A stretch of DNA of 64,000 bases from Sphyrna mokarran (Eukaryota): NCBI GenBank assembly GCA_024679065.1, contig JAGIQG010000015.1, forward strand, positions 48,484,001 through 48,548,000, read 5' to 3'. Each line of letters opens with the position of its first letter. The first letter of the stretch is position 1. A model generated the notes under the pieces. The model was not told the origin of the DNA, did no database searches, and was given only the letters and a program-made list of their open reading frames with translations. Of this stretch, positions 6,400-43,556 are shown piece after piece. The translations under genes were made by a program, and so were the position numbers.

Positions 6400-7800
6400 C
6401 CCCCAGGCAGAATACAGCAGGCAGTACGTAGTGAACAGCCATGGGGGTTGTCCATTAAACATTGGTTGCAGTGCCAAATGATCTCTTACAATCTGCCAGC
6501 GTAAATGTATAATCATTTCAGAGATGAACCTATATGAAACTGTACCTCCACATTGGCACAAGCACAATGGTGTTGATTAATGGAGGATGACAGGAGAAGG
6601 TGAGGATGATCAAGATGGTCTTGCAGATCAAGTTACGTATTGTCTGTTAAATCTTCACTTAGTGGTAAATCTCACACCTCCCCGTTGTTCAAAGCATCTA
6701 GTGTGTCAGCTGATCAGTCCAAACATTGAGATCTCATTTTGAACAGACTAATGGATCTTGGACTGAGTTCATTAGTCATCTCTTCAAAAGGTAGCCTTTG
6801 GTCCCAGAAGCCAGCCATTCAAGTGTTCAAGTCCCTAGCACCTGGAGCTGTCTCAGTACGTACGTATCATGATAGCTGCCAGGATAGCATGCACACAACC
6901 ACATTATCCATTGTCTGTGGCTGCATATAAGCTGCACATTGATAGCCTTTTCTGTTAACAAATATTTCTGGCTGCCCCAAAGATGCTTTAACTCACCACA
7001 TGTTTAACTCACACAACTTTAAATTAAGGGGTATGAGTTATAGGACGGATATCAGAGGTAGGTTCTTTACTCAAAGAGTGATTAGGGAGTGGAATGCCCT
7101 GCCTGCAGCTGTTGTAGATGCGCCAAGTTTGGTGGCGTTTAAGAGGTTAGTTGATAAGTATATGGATGAGAAGGGAATGGTTTAGTTAGGAGGGGCATTG
7201 CTTTTTATTTTGGTCGGCACAACATCGAAGGCCGAAGGGCCTGTTCTGTGCTGTATTGTTCTATGTTCTATGTTCTATGTTCTATGTTAGTAATCTATAC
7301 CCCTTGCATCTTTGGAATTCTGCAATATCTCCAAAGGCTCTGGTTTTTTTCTGCCTGGCTGGCATTGTTATCACCAAATGAAATGAACTCATGGGCATAC
7401 TAAAACAAAGCATCTGTAAAACCCTTTATGAAATGACGGGCTGCTGGCTGCAATATCCCACAAAGATCTCCAGCTGATGCTTGAAAGAGCTCTGAAAAAA
7501 TTTCAAGGCCACTGTTACTTTTAACACCACCAACATTGTGTGTTCACCAACACAATCTGAGGCAACCTCTCCAGCCAACAGTGATGTAACAGTCTCCCTG
7601 GAGAGATGCAGTCATCTCAGGCTCTGGTGTTCCAAAATTTGGAGATATGTCATCCTGTGGTAGATTGCTTTGGTGTAATGATAGTGTCTTCATCTAGTTC
7701 TGTTCACCTGCTGCTGTTGTCTCCCTGCCACTGGCTCTTGCTCAGTAGCAAGTACACAATTTCCTGAACTATAAGAGGTGCAATTGTCCTCGGCCATCTT
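6400..7800 (-). pseudogene. Decayed PIF/Harbinger (DDE_Tnp_4-type) transposase, interrupted by a CR1
   Basis: Minus-strand remnants in the expected order: YLQILEHQSLR*LHLSRETV, KVTVALKFF..SFQASAGDLCGI, FTDALF, ID(Y*)HV, FVNRKGY..INVQL, GSYHD, GWLLG-KGY, TACCIL. Many stops and frameshifts. Confidence 0.8.
7011..7288 (+). mobile_element. 5'-truncated young CR1 LINE 3' end
   Basis: Essentially identical to 10478-10745; encodes FKLRGMSYRTDIRGRFFTQRVIREWNALP; (TTCTATG)n tail; probable ATGTT target duplication. Confidence 0.92.
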
Positions 7801-10080: not shown

Positions 10081-10745
10081 CCCTGAAAGTAGGCAGTCAA
10101 GTGGATAAAGTTGTTAAGAAGGCTTATGGAGTCTTAGCTTTTATTGGTAGGGGGATTGAATTTAGGAGCCGCAGCATCATGTTGCAGCTGTACAAAACTC
10201 TAGTGCGGCCGCACTTGGAGTATTGTGTGCAGTTCTGGTCGCCACATTATAAGAAAGATGTGGAGGCATTGGAGAGGGTACAGAGGAGGTTTACTAGGAT
10301 GTTGCCTGGTATGGAGGGCAGGTCCTATGAAGAGAGGTTGAAGGATTTGAGGTTGTTTTCGTTAGAAAGGAGGCGGCTAAGAGGGGATCTTATTGAAGCA
10401 TATAAGATGATTAGAGGTTTGGATAGGGTGGACAGTGATAGCCTTTTTCCTAGGATGGAGAAAGCTAGCACGAGGGGACACAGCTTTAAATTAAGGGGTA
10501 TGAGTTATAGGACGGATATCAGAGGTAGGTTCTTTACTCAAAGAGTGATTAGGGAGTGGAATGCCCTGCCTGCAGCTGTTGTAGATGCGCCAAGTTTGGT
10601 GGCGTTTAAGAGGTTAGTTGATAAGTATATGGATGAGAAGGGAATGGTTTAGTTAGGAGGGGCATTGCTTTTTATTTTGGTCGGCACAACATCGAAGGCC
10701 GAAGGGCCTGTTCTGTGCTGTATTGTTCTATGTTCTATGTTCTAT
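10081..10745 (+). mobile_element. 5'-truncated young CR1 LINE (ORF2 C-terminus, 3' UTR, tail)
   Basis: Uninterrupted ORF 10101-10652 with CR1 motifs LYKTLVRPHLEYCVQFWSPH, LERVQRRFTRMLPG, LFSLERRRLRGDLIE and WNALP; (TTCTATG)n tail. Confidence 0.95.
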
Positions 10746-17970: not shown

Positions 17971-19363
17971 GTCCCTCAGTAAATTGTATATTCTATGATG
18001 AAGATGAAACATAACTGTACATGTAATACATAAGAAACATCAATATAGTAAATATGAGATGTGTTTTATGCAGCCTTGCCCCTCTTGTCAGCTTCTCTTC
18101 CAACCTTAATTCTATGAACCTCTCAGCTCACATTCCCTGCTGAGATATCCTTTTTTTTCATTCCTAGTCCAAGGTCTACCTACTGTCAGGGCTTCAGAAG
18201 CACCTGTGCTCCTGTTCATGGCCCTAATTCTTTCATCAGTGCCAAGAATATCACGTTCCTGGTCTTGATTGCAGGACTGCTTGTGCTCACACCTTCAACC
18301 TTAAGAATGCCAGTAATCCCAGCTTCAGAGGTAGGAATGTTTCTGCTTTACTCAGGCCCCATCCTAGTTGAGAAAAACATAGGACATCGACACCACTACA
18401 TCTTAGTTTCAAGTCTGACCTTGAATGCCACTCTGTCATGGCTTTAATTTTTACTTTGACCAACTGCTCCACTCCCCCGGCTCATATTGCATTTGCTCCT
18501 CCCCCTCTGCTATCAGTGCTTCGTTCACAACTTAGCTGTATGTCCTTGGTTTTCTCTCCCAAACTAAACTAATCATGCAATGTCACAATTGTTAAAAATA
18601 TTCCATCCTTTTCTTTAATTTTCTTTAATTTGTCTTAATATTTATTTAGCATGCTATTAGCATGATTAATGTACTATATTTGTTCAAAAATATATGATGT
18701 AATTAAATAATGCAATAAATACCGAACAAGTTAGAAATACATCAAGTCCATCAACATCTTGACAGAGGATATTTTAACTTTTTGGCTAGCATTCTCAATC
18801 AGAAAAAATCAAAGTGAAGCAGCTGTAACAGTTGCAATAACTGTTTCTGAGAGGCAGCAAATGCATTGGCAAAGCTAATTCTGCAGAAAACTGTAAGGAG
18901 CTGGAAAATGCTGGATGATGCATCAGGAGTCATTTAAAATTCATGAGAAAGACAAAATGCAGAATGCAAGAGATATGGTGAAATATGTCTGAGGAAAAGC
19001 AAAGAAGCAAAGGTCCCAAGTTGCAAAAGTTTAAGTTCAAGGCACTGGGTTACAGGAACAAAATAGTATTGTTCCCTAAAGTTTCATTCAGCTGATTGGT
19101 AGGGAGCTAAAGCCAAAAGTGCAGGACTGAGAAAGGGTCGGAAATAGAAAAGGTGTCACCTGCAGAGATCAGAATATTGGGTGTAATTTTCCAATTCTTT
19201 TTTCTAAGTCTCGTTACTCAGCTAGCTTTTCTCATCAGATATAGCAGCACTTGGAATCAAAAAGTAAGAGGAGGAGGGAATTCAGACCATCTTGGGAGGA
19301 GATGGGAGTGTCCATTTTTGGTAGAGATGAGAATGGATAGGGGTGGGAGGCCATAGAGGTAAG

Positions 19364-19845
19364 TGAAAAAGGGAATGGGTTAATGAACTTTGTAACACTT
19401 AAAGATTTGTGCAAAGTATTGCAAGACTTGTTTTTGCACCCCTGTAATCTTGTATGCCAGTTGATGTGTTTGTGCGAGTTTGTAACCTTGTATGCTGGCT
19501 AAACAAACCATAGGTCTTGAGATGCGATAGTGACTAGTCAGACTAGAGGAATAGAATGGAGACAGTCATGGCCTTGGGACAGCTATTACAATGGATTACA
19601 CAAAGGATAAAACCATTGAGGCAGCAATAACCAAATGCGGGATGATAAACCATGACAGACATCCTGGAGAACTGAGGGTGTGATTAGGGGCGGGAACCAG
19701 AATGTATAAAAATCTAATCTTACTTGTGTTTGGGTAGAAGTCTGGTGAACTGCTTTAGGAACCGGGCTTCTTCCAAAAGCTTTTGTAATAAACCTGCTGT
19801 ACTCTGACTCATGACTAGTCTCAGAGGTATTATTTACTGATAACA
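19364..19845 (+). repeat. ERV 5' LTR (482 bp)
   Basis: tgaaaaagggaatgggttaatg...ttatttactgataaca; contains a TATAAAA box and AATAAA; homologous to 25209-25648. Confidence 0.9.
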
Positions 19846-20299: not shown

Positions 20300-22470
20300 T
20301 GGTGAGTATAAACATATTTGTATTATGGCAGGATCACAAGGAAGTGGGAACCCCCGGGATCCCTGATAAATGAATATATAACTGAGAGGGGTAAATTTAT
20401 TAAACAGATGAAAAAAGGGGATGGGATCGATAGACCAACAACAGAAATGGTTGGAAAAGGAAGAAAAGAACAGAACTAAGAAAACTGCAGTTCTCTTAGT
20501 TCATCAGTTCATTAATTGAACCAGTCTCACTCTCAGGTATGAAATTGGATGACAACAAAGCAAAAATCAAAATGTTGGAAGCACGCAATAGAGAACCAGA
20601 AAAGAGAAACCAAATTTTAGAGGGCCCTGGCTGGGGATTCTTGCCTCCTTATGGGTCGGCCATACAACTCATGGGGAGACTTCGCTGTAGAGTTAAACAC
20701 TGGGCTCGATGCAATGATTGAACCGTTTAATTGGTTTAAGGCGGAAGTCCAATGTGTCTTGGGCAATGCACCAATATTAAACACAAAAGGGTGAAGGAGC
20801 CTCTGAATTCGGGGAGCAACTCCTTAAAGTATATCAAGAATGTTCAGGAATTCCTGAAACTGCCCAAACAGATATAGCCCTTTTACAAGCATTTAAAGAC
20901 CGGCTGTCGCCAGCTCACCAAAAAATCCTTAAAATGGGAGTTATTTGTTCTCAGGATTATTAAAGCATTAATGAACACACATTGCAAAATGTTCTTACAC
21001 CTAACTTCAAGAAGAAGTAAAATTCTATGATTGTCATTTTCATAAAATGCAAATAGATAGAACACAGCAGATTGTGTTATGTTTATTTGGAGGTATTGAA
21101 ATGCGAAACAAAAATTTTGTATACTGGTGACGCCGAATCTGATCTATTTTAGATTAATGTTTTCAAATTCAAATAGCATTTACTACAGACTGCAAGGAAA
21201 GATGTATTTCTGAAATGGTGATTATTTTCACATATTTTAAAAAGCACTGAACTGTCAAAATTGACCATATAAAACATCAAAAATACCAGAAAGAGATTTT
21301 GTGGTAAGCTTACGCTATAACTGATTGCGTATGCACATAACTCTGATTTACAGTTGTCATAAACAATGATAAGCCTTCCATGATATGCCTGGGATTCCAT
21401 AATACTGCACTGTATAGCACAAGTACTCTCACTTTTTAAATCAAAAAAAGTTAATACATTGTTTATTTTGTTTCAGTTTTGAGACTTTTAATCTTACTAG
21501 CTTCCAAATGCACCTTGTAGTCTAACTGTTAAAATGTTTAAATATACTGTGAGCAGTACTGGGCATTTGGCCAAACTTTAACAGGAACTACATTATTTTG
21601 CTGTCAATATATTGTTGCTGATAAGTTAACCCTTTGAGTATTAATTGACCTCTCTTGCTTTCAGGGAATCTGAAGTAATTATTTCTTTTAATCTCTAATG
21701 ACCATTCAATTAAGATAGATTAGAGAAGCATGTGGAACCATGCAGTGTTTCTCAAAGCATAACTGCTCAGAAATAATCCTCCAAATGTTAACTCATTTTT
21801 GACTCTGGTGGTATAATGTTATTGTTAATGTATTTTATTTTAACACAATTTAAAAAGGAGCCCATCTCTTGTCAACACTACTTCTGATTCAGTGATGACC
21901 GAAGCCATTTTTAGTTAAATTGTTTGGATTTTTTATTATTGAGGGGACTAATGATTCTGTTGCTTGCGCATGAACTTGTAAGTGTCCTGACCGAGTGTAA
22001 AATCACCTGGAGACTACACAATAGATCTCATTCTCTGCTCTGTTGCTGTGGCAATGTTTTCAATGTGAATTTATGCAACCAGCACAGAGGCAAGAGCTCC
22101 TGACATTAATGTGAACATCAGAAGATCACAAGAGGCCATAAAATGAAACTGCGATGTTTCAAAGCTGATGAATTAGTAGAATGGGCATCTGGAATTAAAG
22201 ACAGACCAGATGAGAACCCATACCCATGAATAAAACAGAAAAATGTTAGTGCAAACAGTGGAGGATCTAAACCAAAGAATACTTGCCATAATCGTGGAAA
22301 GCCAGGCTACTTTGCCAAAGACTGTAGGGTTCCAAAGGAGGGAAAGAAGGAAGGCCCCTACCTGCCACTTTTGCAATAAGGAGGGCCACCCAGAGGCTAT
22401 CCAATTGGAGCAAACACGGACAACCTAGTCAGGCTTCCCCTGCCATTATGGAAGGGACAAACTGATGAGG
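20300..22470 (+). pseudogene. ERV gag remnant (capsid plus two zinc knuckles), split by a 1.2 kb insert
   Basis: MHR-like KGEGASEFGEQLLKVYQECSG; LQAFKDRLSPAHQKILKMGVICSQDY joined to DELVEWASG across the insert; knuckles TCHNRGKPGYFAKDC and TCHFCNKEGH. The 5' boundary is approximate. Confidence 0.75.
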
Positions 22471-22499: not shown

Positions 22500-22750
22500 G
22501 AGTAGAATCTACATGTCTGTGCTAGTAGAGGGCTGACAATGTGAAGCGCTGGTGGACATGGGAGCCTTTAGATTTATCATGGACCTACCCTTACCCATAA
22601 CAAATAAAATGATCTATGTAAAAGGAAATAACGGGTAGAAGACACCTGCCTATTTAAGCGAAACCACCTTAGTAGAAATTAATAACAAATATACCTATGC
22701 AATTCTATGTATGTAAAAATAATGAAGAAACTATTATGGGAAATGACCTG
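22500..22750 (+). pseudogene. ERV aspartic protease remnant
   Basis: VLVEG*QCEALVDMGA is a decayed LVDTGA active-site motif; ACG to ATG fits CpG decay. Confidence 0.75.
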
Positions 22751-22779
22751 ATGAAGGAATACAAAATCTGAATAGATTG

Positions 22780-23560
22780 TGGGAAGGGATGCCATGATGA
22801 CCAGTATGGGGTAGAAAGGTGTGGAATGGGGCATTGCCTGGTATTGTCAGCGATGCATAACCTGTGCCCAATATAACCCAGTGAGGCCTGTAAAAATCAA
22901 GATGGGACACCAGCCTCGTCCCAAAGGTTCCTGGGAACATCTAAAATCGACTTTACTGGGCCTCTTCCGCAGTCATGTGGGAGAACCTACTGCTTGGTAA
23001 TAATTGACCAATTCACCAGATGGGTAGAGGCATTCCTGACAAACAGTGGTAAGAATATTAACTGAAGAAGTTATCCCAAGGTAGGGAGTACCTTTGCAAA
23101 TAGACTCCGATCAGGGCACACATTTTACAAGGAAGGTAGTAAAAACCATATGTCAACTGATGGGGATAAAACAAAAATTTCACATCCCCTACCACCCTCA
23201 AAGCTCAGGAATAATAGAATGTATGAGTAGGACACTTAAAACCTCCCTGGCAAAGGCCATGCAGGAATCAGGGAAGAGGTGAACAGAGGTGTTATCCACT
23301 ATATTAATGAAACGCAGAGCCACGATGAATTGAACCACGGGGCAGACACCATATGAGCAAATGACCAGGGGGGCTATTCAACTGTCCGAGTCCATCATTA
23401 CCTGGGGGACCAACATAGGCTCATTGAGGGCCAGGATTAGGCAGTGGGTTTTAGAATTAAGTGCCCAACTAAAGGATATGCGAAAAACAGTCCAGGACAA
23501 ACAAATAGTGGCAGACAAGCAAAATGAACTAGGACAAACCCCTAGCAGGCAGTAAAAGGT
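22780..23560 (+). pseudogene. ERV integrase remnant
   Basis: CQRCITCAQYN, IDFTGPLP, LVIIDQFTRWVEAF, IDSDQGTHF and HIPYHPQSSGIIE (DDE core). Confidence 0.92.
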
Positions 23561-23929
23561 CTGACAACACCAATTTTAAATCCAACCAATTTATTTGATA
23601 GTAAACTTGCTAGCTTTCGGCCTTTGTAGCAAAGTTATGGTTAAAAACATTATCCAGAAAACCTGGGTTCATCCCCAAATGAAATGGCCCCTATAAAGTT
23701 ATCATCAGTGGAAGCACCTGTGCCTGCATAAATATGCAAGGCAGGGCCATCTCGAAACATTGGACTCAGTTGAAAGAATACACTGCCACCATTTGGAAAA
23801 TTAGGTAATGTGCTCAATTCACAGATACATGAGATGGCTGACCTCCAAGTAAGCTGAACAGGTTCACGGGAAGTTGCATGTGGGAATATAGCCTTTGAAC
23901 CATTGTATAACAGTCGCACAGGTTATAGT

Positions 23930-25110
23930 TAAGTGATAGAATGATTCCCTTGCTGCTTCTCATAACCCTTGCCCATCAGCCACCGAGGGAAAGTATAGAT
24001 GGAATTGTAGGGACAGAGCACCATAATCATCTCTGTAACGGTGACTCTGTCTATTGTAACCATCCGACACATGGAATAGGCCCTTGGGAAGTAACCCCTA
24101 GGAACTGCTCCTCGGGATTCCTTAACTATAGCCGTTGACAACTCTGTTGGAGGAGGCAAAGTGATTGGGGTCTGTCATGCAATATAACTTGGTGTAACTG
24201 GAATTTCCGGTGTTCAGCTGAGGGATCGGGATGGACCTGTGCCCAGCAACAACAGAGGGGGAATGAGTACATCAACATGAGATTTGGCTGATCCAAGAGA
24301 TTATGGCACCAATCCCTTAAAATCAGACCCCCTGACATGAACATTTTTGTGTATATGTCTCTCTTGTATGCATTACAGTCAAATTTGAGCAAGTGCTTAT
24401 GTGAGCAGTATGACTGCATATAATGATACCTATTTTGTATGAGGAAACAATGCCTACTTATGGCTTCCATGGGATTGGGCAGGATTGTGTTATTTAGCAT
24501 ATGTGATGCCCTACCTTCACCATTACACTGACTTAAGAGACACTCTGAGATACACCTGCTCAGGGCCAAGCAAGCCATTAGTAAGACAGCACAGTTCTTC
24601 ATGATAGCCTACCACCGCAAGGACGGTAAAGGCAGCAAAGAACTTATATGCATGGCCGCGATCTTAGAGAGAATCGCAAATGAGACTAGAGACAGGTTCG
24701 AGGAGATGAGCACAGCCGTCTCCGAGGCATCAGCAGAGGTCATAGCTATTCAGACTACTGCTTGACAGCATCGATTGGCACTCAATTATGTGCTAGCCTC
24801 TCAAGGGGGGGGGTATGCGCGATAGTTAACTCCGAATGCCGTGCGTATATTCCAGATGCTTCAGAGAATATAACTCATTTGGTAAATCATATTAAACACG
24901 TAACAAAAAGAATACAGGATAGGAAAACCAATATCACAATTATAACCCTCCAGACTGGTTGGGGCAATGGTTTGGGTCATGAGGTTCATACCTGATACAT
25001 GCATTGATTATATTAATTGTAATTGTTATTGCTTGCTGTGTTTGTATGACATTATTGACCAGCTGTTGTAAAACAGCGACAGCCCGGATTATACTGGGCC
25101 CAAGTGTACA
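23930..25110 (+). pseudogene. ERV env remnant with a gamma-type transmembrane subunit
   Basis: Immunosuppressive-domain-like *QHRLALNYVLASQGG, then (frameshift) VCAIVNSEC(R)AYIPD as a decayed CX6CC, then a hydrophobic TM-like stretch near 25000. Confidence 0.8.
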
Positions 25111-25208: not shown

Positions 25209-25648
25209 TGAAGAAGGGAACAGGTTAATGAAGTTTGTAGCACTTAGAGGTTTGTGCAGAACATTGCAAGACTTATTTTTGCATCCCTGTAACCTTGTAT
25301 ACCAGTTGACGTGTTTGTACAAGCTTGTAACCTTGTATGTTGGCTAAACAAACCATAGGTGTCGAGATGCAATAACAGCTAATCCCACTGGAGGAACAGA
25401 ATGGAGACAGTCACGACCTTGGAACAGCTATGATTACAATGGACTACATAAAGGATGAAGCTGCTGAGGCAGCAATAACCATATGATGGATGGGGCGGGA
25501 ACCGGGATTATAAAATCTACTCTTACTTGTGTTCGGAAAGAAGTCTGGTGGACCACTTTAGGAACTAGGCTTCTCCCAAAAGCTTTTGTAATAAACCTGT
25601 TGTACTTTGACTCACAATTAGTCTTGGAGGTATTATTTATCAATAACA
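25209..25648 (+). repeat. ERV 3' LTR (440 bp)
   Basis: Follows the PPT; tgaagaagggaacaggttaatg...ttatttatcaataaca; lacks an internal segment of about 45 bp present in the 5' LTR. Confidence 0.9.
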
Positions 25649-25983
25649 GTGAGAGTAGGTAGGAGTGGGAGGGCATAGGGATAAGAATAAGTAGGGGTGA
25701 GAATGGGTAAGGCAGGGAGTGGAGAGGAGAAGAAAGGGTAAAGGTGAGAATAGGTAGGGGAGCGATTGGGTAAGAGTGGATTGGGATGGGAACAGATAGG
25801 GGAGGGAATGGGTGGCAGAGTAAGTGGGTATGGGTGGCAATGAATAAGTGAGGGATTGGGTGCAAGTTGATGGGGATGAGAGTAGTAGGAGTGTGAGGGC
25901 CTAGGGGTGGATGTGGGTATCGGTGAGAACAGGTAGGACAAGGGAATGAATAAAGGTAGGAGTGGGTAACAGATGGAGACCAT

Positions 25984-26182
25984 GATGTGGAGATGCCAGT
26001 ATTGGACTGAGGTAGACACAATAAAAAGTCTCACAACACCAGGTTAAAGTCCAACAGGTTTATTTGATATCACAATCTTTTAGAGTGCTGCTGACTCACC
26101 TGATGAAGGAGCAGTGTTCCGAAAGCTCATGATACCAAATAAATCTGTTAGATTTTAACCTGGTATTATGAGACTTCTTATT
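25984..26182. mobile_element. Penelope-derived palindromic element containing a minimal hammerhead motif
   Basis: Inverted arms aagtctcacaacaccaggttaaagtccaacagg and ctgttagattttaacctggtattatgagactt around CTGATGA...GAAA. Confidence 0.75.
26096..26132 (+). ncRNA. Minimal type I hammerhead ribozyme motif
   Basis: tcac-CTGATGA-aggagcagtgttcc-GAAA-gc-TC-atga: stem I tcac/atga (one mismatch), intact core, stem II and palindromic stem III. Confidence 0.6.
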
Positions 26183-26939
26183 GCGAGGTGAAAAGATTTA
26201 GAAAGTAAGGGTTGATAAAGGGGAGATTGGAGCAGTGCAGAGTGGAAAGGAAGAAACAGAAGAGTGCAGAGGGGGAGGAAGAAGAATATGGAGGGGAGAG
26301 AGAGAGGGTGAGAGTGAAACAACATCTGAAATGGGAGGAAGGGAGACGGTGTGAGCTTCTGGGATGAAGAGTGGGTGAGAGGAGGTAATGAAGGGTAGAG
26401 GGAAGCACAGGAAGTGGGGAGGAGAGGGGGACAAGGAGGCAGAAGGGAGGGGTAGCCGCTCAAGTCACCACTCATTTATTTGCATTACTTTACCCACCAC
26501 CATGGTAAAGTAATTGTGAGTAGCCATGAAGTCTTTCTCCCACTACATAATGTTCAAGCTAAATCAGAATTATTTCTGCCTGCAGAGTTATATTACAACA
26601 TTTAACTGGAATAAACAGTAAGTACAATAAGGTTCAATTAAAATCACATCTTCAAACATTGCCAGTGTTGTTGAACTGAGTATTGCCATTAATCAAAAAT
26701 ACCAGAAAGGTCAAGAAACTGGAGCAGGCCATTCAGCCCAAACTAGCTTTTCCTAAGTACTCAAGGTTCCGTTTAATGACTGGTTTTGGATGCAGAACAA
26801 AGCAAAGTGTCAGTATCACTCAGGAATCTTGTTAATGACCTGAGTTCAGAGATCATGAAAACGAAACCACCTTCAGTATTCCAGCCCAGTGCAAAGTCAT
26901 ATTTTAGAAGTGTCCAGGCAGTCCATTGGACCCAACTCA

Positions 26940-42931: not shown

Positions 42932-43340
42932 GTAATTGTAACTTGCCTTTCCTCTCAACTAGATAGATTACAGCGTTTACCGAACTCCAAACTCCAAAAA
43001 TAAACACGTTTGAACAATTATTACTTAGCTGTAATTAGTATTTAAATTGCAATGACTTTTCCATACTCGGAACCTCCAATTCATTTGTGAAATCATGGAC
43101 GAGGTAAAATGTAATAGTCATTTTTAAATCAAAAGGGCGAAAAAATCAACTTGGCATTTAAAAAGGGATTCGCTGCGTCGCCGATAAATCGTATTAATAT
43201 TCAATGCTCTGGCACATTTGGAAATGTCAAATCTCAAAAGCGGAACAAAAAAAATGTAATACGCACCTTCAAATTATTTGTGCCATTTATGTATAATAGT
43301 TGTATTGTTAAAATGTGTGATCAGGATACATGTTTACTGT

Positions 43341-43556
43341 GATGTGGTGATGCCGGCGTTGGACTGGAATGAGCACAGCAAGAAGTCTCACAACACCAGG
43401 TTAAAGTCCAATAGATTTAATTTGATAGCACAAGCTTTCGGAGCATTGCTCCTTTTATTTGGTAGCATAAGCTTTGAAAGCGCTGCTCCGAAAACTTGTG
43501 CTATCAAATGAACCTGTTGGACTTTAACTTGGTGTTGTGAGACTTCTTATTGTGCC
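43341..43556. mobile_element. Penelope-derived palindromic element in pax9 intron 3
   Basis: Same family as 25984-26182; arms 43373-43445 and 43484-43555 are near-perfect reverse complements. Confidence 0.8.

Follow-up and report, generated by a model that had tools for sequence, protein, structure and literature searches.

The provirus and its insert

The window, a stretch of 64,000 nucleotides from Sphyrna mokarran, holds a decayed endogenous retrovirus (ERV), all features of which are given here on the forward (+) strand. Its 5' LTR (19364..19845), with the ends TG...CA, is 84.9% identical over 437 aligned columns to the 3' LTR (25209..25648), which is preceded by a polypurine tract, and the provirus is bordered by the target-site duplications GTAAG (19359..19363) on the left and GTGAG (25649..25653) on the right, with one mismatch between the two. 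The decayed gag is split into a portion before the insert (20500..20960, the start being approximate) and a portion after it (22167..22466, with a degenerate zinc-knuckle-like stretch recognized by eye and no Pfam match), and two stop codons are found in each translated flank of the insert. These are followed by a region (22500..23279) comprising a protease remnant, the junction of an RT/RNase H deletion near 22787 and integrase remnants, and by a decayed env-like region (23940..25060) that was read by eye and has no Pfam match. The integrase remnants match Pfam rve at E-values of 3e-6 and 3e-4, both below the curated cut-off. The loss of RT from the window copy can be seen by comparison with sister copies, which diverge at ~22787 and continue into RT motifs.

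As to the class of this ERV, a target duplication of 5 bp is combined with the zinc-knuckle-like gag remnant recognized by eye. An RT piece from a sister copy matches Peptidase A9/RT and Pr125Pol chains at an E-value of 2e-11, names used for foamy-virus proteins, followed by an MLV-type RT at 3e-8. A search of a sister RT piece against the protein collection gave no match. For reference, in PMC4299795, ERV1 elements are characterized by a 4 bp duplication and a gag zinc finger, and ERV3/4 elements by 5 bp and no finger.

Two further repeats were observed in the window. A 268-bp direct repeat with 100% identity is present in two copies 3.5 kb apart (7011-7278 and 10478-10745) and also follows two ERV copies elsewhere (L110, L113); it is probably a young mobile element. 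A near-palindromic repeat of ~200 bp (43340-43555 and 25983-26183) is dispersed in many loci and looks like a miniature inverted-repeat element.

The insert itself occupies 20961..22166. The initial annotation had proposed, from the letters alone, that an AT-rich piece cleanly splits gag here, and this is borne out: the boundaries are exact, sister ERV copies have clean empty sites and the gag peptides quoted for the two sides do adjoin the insert on its left and right, each flank having been translated separately. The contrast in composition also holds, as the insert is T-rich and G-poor (T 0.34, G 0.17) and the viral flanks are purine-rich (T 0.22, G 0.24-0.25). No target-site duplication, poly(A) tail or repeat tail is seen on the insert, so that it does not have the features of a LINE-driven processed insertion; no tandem repeat was reported within it, and no terminal inverted repeat was found at a threshold of 30 nt, all in agreement with the initial description. 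Helitrons have 5'-TC and CTRR-3' ends, insert between A and T and are dispersed. Here, one register gives A|T and 5'-TC, yet no CTRR end exists on either strand and there are no dispersed copies. As for coding potential, the insert contains two ORFs, neither with a Pfam match and neither recombinase-like. The cargo shows no sign of constraint, and nothing indicates a function for it.

The donor is the 3' UTR of FER

The genome search suggested by the initial annotation yielded seven matches to the insert in five places, four of which are proviral. The sole matched place without viral flanks, at C1215:56.73 Mb, is the donor (G000:C1215:56729825-56731028), to which the insert is 89% identical, in the same sense as the viral genes. 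The donor piece begins 216 nt past the stop codon of the FER kinase gene: the short frame closing at that stop shares 96% identity with the Fer kinase of a shark, and its 17 protein matches, from cartilaginous fishes and other vertebrates, are all either Fer itself or kinases with the Fer architecture. The FER exons lie in order on the + strand over 144 kb (C1215:56.586-56.730 Mb). When the terminal exon (4.4 kb) was searched against the genome, eight matches were obtained; apart from the exon's own, they show duplication of the 1.2-kb piece and of nothing else, in every case within the ERV. Taken together, the searches revealed a single donor outside the virus and, besides the window copy, four more proviruses with the piece, as expected for retroviral transduction, one of the origins that had been put forward. 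An unknown mobile element or a Crypton-like one, also put forward, does not agree with the lack of copies in non-viral flanks other than the donor or with the presence of the native FER UTR in other species.

The donor is a native, transcribed FER 3' UTR, because contigs that we regard as RNA-type end near an AATAAA while a DNA contig of another species continues. In all three such runs (one of the same species and two of others), the contigs first align at the acceptor of the terminal exon, and in two of the three they carry long unaligned upstream parts; they stop at L076:8238-8375, near the AATAAA at L076:8233. It should be noted that the RNA status of these runs is a guess of the analysis tool, as none is recorded as RNA. 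The DNA run of a further species contains one contig that joins the last exon to the segment and extends kilobases beyond, at ~94% identity, and the RNA-type contigs of the two other species cross both segment boundaries.

Two side observations concern FER and related sequences. Its 3' UTR (L076:3966-8300, ~4.2 kb) is ~94% identical in three other species, and the nearby neutral flank is ~89-90% identical. Intronless kinase-domain frames were found at G000:C1548:50934817-50935635, C1215:82047854-82048669 and C1215:124476802-124477257; they are open over 236-483 aa, are 38-46% identical to Fer and are possibly kinase retrogenes or single-exon kinases.

The initial annotation had also pointed to two acceptor-like tracts in the insert. 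The tracts exist, having come with the donor UTR, and only one of them passes a strict filter, with 0.22 expected in shuffles. Both are crossed without gaps by RNA-type contigs of the same species. Splice use of the tracts was considered and rejected, as the contigs listed do not show it and the two shortened copies resume elsewhere.

Junctions and empty sites

Empty sites were sought in two junction searches of 30 loci each (60 in all), in which the best candidates were scored. The left and right viral flanks adjoin with a gap of 0 in 14 of the 30 loci of one search and in 21 of the 30 of the other, corresponding to 25 distinct empty places; viral sequence was therefore neither lost nor duplicated when the piece went in. 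Exact homology at the junctions is limited to 1 nt, a single T, at each end. On the left, six of the eight viral bases before the site match the eight donor bases before the piece, a similarity reached at 0.55% of UTR positions, and the product retains the viral letters. On the right, there is no similarity past the one shared nucleotide.

The ends of the piece have a second peculiarity. AAAGC had been noticed just inside both ends of the insert, and it is indeed present, although the full repeat is (T)CAAAGC and the first base of the window copy is privately changed. The left end repeat (20961..20966) is CAAAGC in the donor and in two sister copies, the right one (22160..22166) consists of CAAAGC and the single T common to the viral target and lies, in the donor, within a 10-bp palindrome, and a third, internal TCAAAGC is found at 21752..21758, so that all three copies in the 4.2-kb UTR fall in the captured piece. 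(T)CAAAGC thus bounds the donor piece on each side, and both copies moved with it. For random UTR segments, the chance of such bounding is 0.0002-0.005 at a slack of 0-1 nt and up to 0.012 at 2 nt, values that should be read as those of a post hoc test. No copy of the end repeat is present in any of the 25 distinct empty places, and a 7-nt footprint of loss between the end repeats was found in none of the 60 best-candidate loci. The absence of loss and the motif on either end are two details that remain unexplained.

With regard to RNA processing, the left donor end lies 32-33 nt past the proximal AATAAA, where 3-5% of positions are so placed (in a window chosen post hoc), and no GU-rich element follows it. 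RNA structure as the cause of the capture was rejected: the predicted folds at the viral site (four natural empty copies) and at both donor ends are no better than those of shuffles (z of -0.4 to 0.9), and no pairing between the two donor ends is predicted.

In 8 of the 30 loci, an unrelated gag-pol deletion, itself amplified, has its left break at the gag site of the insert, to within 0-2 nt. That deletion is carried by a younger subfamily whose members are 88-95% alike (L097, L098, L099, L100, L104, L107, L110, L113), and beyond it the sequence picks up again at a tandem unit of 30 bp ahead of env (~23855-23861 of the window). At or beside the same gag site, an 8-bp duplication and two 10-bp losses were observed (L013/L118; L012/L109; L035/L108), which may have arisen by slippage at short local repeats.

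Spread and relative timing

Five loci carry the chimera with identical junctions. The left junction was found in four copies (the window, C882, C838 and C1215:99.8 Mb), as was the right junction (the window, C838, C882 and C805). Each of the four copies checked, C805 being left out, has TG...CA LTRs that are 85-91% alike within a pair and a 5-bp target duplication that differs between loci; these four are therefore separate integrations and not segmental copies. The insert copies are 9-14% divergent from each other and 9-11% from the donor, and private changes over 1167 columns number 41, 50 and 68 for three of the viral copies and 40 for the donor. Later repeats lie inside the cargo of L068 (C838), L069 (C882) and L070 (C1215): 352 bp, 1403 bp and ~875 bp replacing the right half, respectively.

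Trees of the viral flanks are star-like and do not group the five insert copies in a clade (3, 3 and 5 changes); a single clade is not rejected (AU p 0.119, with short or gappy rows kept). The capture coincided with a star-like burst of the ERV family. One large pol-deletion junction is present in 12 of 18 rows, three with the insert and nine without, and five of these nine have a clean empty site, while the window's own, different RT-loss junction is common to one empty copy. As all four combinations of insert and pol deletion thus exist, either the family has recombined or identical deletions have been repeated.

Three sequencing runs bear on the timing. For X10, the insert is covered by one FER contig alone, and the alignment of the flank contig breaks off 15 bases short of the LTR. 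X3 has a contig that extends 98 bases across the boundary between flank and LTR, and both X3 and X8 have several different contigs over the insert. The pattern is suggestive of a capture and integration after the split from the species of X10 and before that from the species of X3. Absolute dating was rejected: at the rate of 2.2e-10 assumed in PMC4422223, these LTRs would be 200-400 My old, in conflict with the cross-species pattern, and timing should accordingly be considered in relative terms only. As a side observation, the window insert (20962-22166) differs at 68 places from the FER UTR of the X10 species and at 112 from the FER UTR of its own species; evolution in the host lineage appears to have been several times faster after the capture.

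Discussion

Capture of host sequences by ERVs is already known (Tan 2016; Chong 2014), and the present case can be compared with several such systems. In LTR-mediated retroposition, as described in Tan 2016 (PMC5131818), a partial host transcript without poly(A) or a target duplication of its own lies in an LTR element, and further rounds of copying share the switch points. Similarly, the FER piece is flanked on both sides by one LTR element and underwent secondary retroposition with common switch points, as seen from the five loci and the differing 5-bp duplications of all four copies checked. The Drosophila cases there all replace part of the element, none interrupts a continuous element and their median microsimilarity is 6 bp (PMC5131818). 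By contrast, the FER cargo is purely non-coding, replaces no part of the element (gap of 0 at 25 distinct empty sites) and has 1 nt of exact homology; as the replacement feature is missing, we file it as a variant and not as a typical member of the LTR captures. FAM8A1/HERV-K, mentioned in the same text (PMC5131818), is alike in being a host transcript piece in an ERV that is now a dead copy and unlike in its coding cargo and the microsimilarity at its fusion points.

The crocodilian captures of KIT-ligand in CrocERV29 and nectin3 in CrocERV31 (Chong 2014, PMC4299795) resemble the FER case in that an old non-mammalian lineage carries host mRNA in 6-9 copies common to several species. The KIT-ligand capture even took place with no significant viral loss, which its authors call "highly unusual" (PMC4299795). 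There, however, the cargo consists of coding ORFs under purifying selection that lie between pol and env or replace env (PMC4299795), whereas here it is a 3' UTR within gag with no sign of constraint. Our own literature search, which covered titles and the starts of abstracts outside subscription journals and repeat databases, found no report of a captured FER sequence, nor of any host sequence taken up by a shark ERV. A paralogue of FER, FES/FPS, was retrovirally acquired as a gag fusion in the acutely transforming viruses that carry v-fes/v-fps. In the present case no kinase coding sequence was captured, and the link is probably a coincidence.

As to the mechanism, we consider that the piece was probably captured in a single event during reverse transcription. 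The reverse transcriptase would have switched from the viral RNA to a FER transcript packaged with it, copied 1.2 kb there and rejoined the same viral site, and this double jump is simplest if it took place end-to-end at a break in the viral RNA, with one shared T per jump. We favour this reading because the donor is exonic and in the same sense, because the target would have been in the course of being copied in a burst, because the family seems to recombine and because a second rearrangement hits the same site. Forced switching at RNA breaks and patching by unlinked host RNA are described in PMC3187697 and PMC4997597. In mammals, Fer, like its variant FerT, has a role in sperm (PMC10049441). 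The zero viral loss and the single nucleotide of exact homology count against capture at this stage, and the polarity of the imperfect left match would be easier to reconcile with priming on FER by a broken DNA end than with a switch of the minus strand. The failure of the five copies to group in the flank trees (a single clade being nonetheless not rejected), the ordinary RNA folds, the guessed RNA status of the runs and the end repeats, for which this reading does not account, also weigh against it. Furthermore, intron loss cannot prove an RNA origin, because the piece sits wholly within the terminal exon. After a capture during reverse transcription, the gag-disrupted chimera would have been copied in trans by the proteins of sister viruses into at least five loci, as the insert breaks gag and the insert copies lack RT. 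Recombination would then have moved the cargo between the two pol-deletion types, and we thus infer one capture, followed by copying and by shuffling of the cargo.

A different first step is possible and should be considered seriously, although we find it distinctly less probable: a young germ-cell provirus could have suffered a double-strand break, been patched with 1.2 kb of FER, copied from gene DNA or cDNA, and later been mobilized. A pure insertion without target duplication or poly(A) and with minimal microhomology is the pattern of class 2 templated insertions, in which, according to Onozawa and Aplan 2016 (PMC5110952), the distant transcribed donor stays intact. In the FER case, the distant donor is likewise intact, the end-joining marks amount to 1 nt of homology with no deletion and no extra bases, and the left match of six in eight with the recipient letters kept suits priming by a broken 3' end. 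The enrichment of class 2 insertions for transcribed donors (PMC5110952) also agrees. On the other hand, such a patch would need a rare germ-line event on one provirus of a small family, during a short burst and while still mobile, and it leaves the independent amplified deletion at the same viral site without explanation; the experimental insertions given in PMC5110952, at 73-414 bp, are shorter than 1.2 kb. Class 2 insertions are moreover single-locus (PMC5110952), while the FER chimera re-integrated in the provirus at least four more times. Repair-templated capture, which the initial annotation had listed among the origins, may thus stand as a first step but does not account for everything, since it leaves the later re-integration of the chimera to be explained.

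It is also conceivable, though unlikely, that a free, uncapped 3' UTR fragment whose ends had been set by RNA processing was joined end-to-end by reverse transcriptase into a recurrent break of the viral RNA, with one base used per jump. The position of the left end 32-33 nt past the proximal AATAAA and the TCAAAGC at either end are the features behind this reading, and uncapped UTR fragments are a phenomenon described in PMC5725528. If true, ERV fossils would record ancient mRNA cleavage sites, together with a way of taking up host sequence that costs the virus nothing and differs from switching at microhomologies.

Far less probable is that a recombinase or nuclease recognized TCAAAGC at both ends and moved the piece, either in a Crypton-like manner or as a circle formed from two repeats. 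The same 6-7-mer at both ends, with the chance of 0.0002-0.005 given above, and the palindrome at the right end speak for it. In a Crypton-type insertion, however, the empty site keeps one short direct repeat and copies are dispersed in unrelated flanks, and the crossover of a circle requires a repeat copy in the target. Here both repeats travelled and yet none of the 25 empty sites holds one, and the Crypton-like element proposed at first is rejected by these empty sites and by the native donor; every match other than the donor is inside the ERV, neither of the two insert ORFs is recombinase-like and the motif test is post hoc. We regard as very improbable that the copy at the FER locus is itself an inserted, unknown non-autonomous element that also entered gag. 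At that locus the end repeats might pass for a target duplication, but the continuous other-species DNA contig described above largely refutes it, as do the RNA-type contigs crossing both boundaries and the fact that the gag copies carry both repeats while the target has none. Finally, an assembly chimera can practically be dismissed: while no zero-difference contig of the same species spans either window junction, as can happen where contigs built from short reads end at repeats, the junctions are common to five loci, each on a different contig, that are nonetheless 9-14% apart from each other and the donor, and the left junction of a sister copy is bridged within one contig, by 38 bases.

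The insert is thus a piece of FER 3' UTR ferried by a retrovirus and not a transposon, and its origin is explained and ordinary in kind. What is distinctive is the non-coding cargo, the loss-free insertion into gag, the junctions of 1 nt and the (T)CAAAGC at both donor ends. As a natural record of host-sequence uptake the case is unusually complete, since the donor, the empty sites (25), the five daughter integrations and the two types of pol deletion that recombine are all readable to the single base. It shows that a capture need not cost the virus any sequence. Non-coding mRNA tails are ferried as well, and screens based on coding genes would miss such cargo. The insert is also a dated fossil of a kinase UTR that has been conserved, and it is usable as a presence/absence marker in shark phylogeny.
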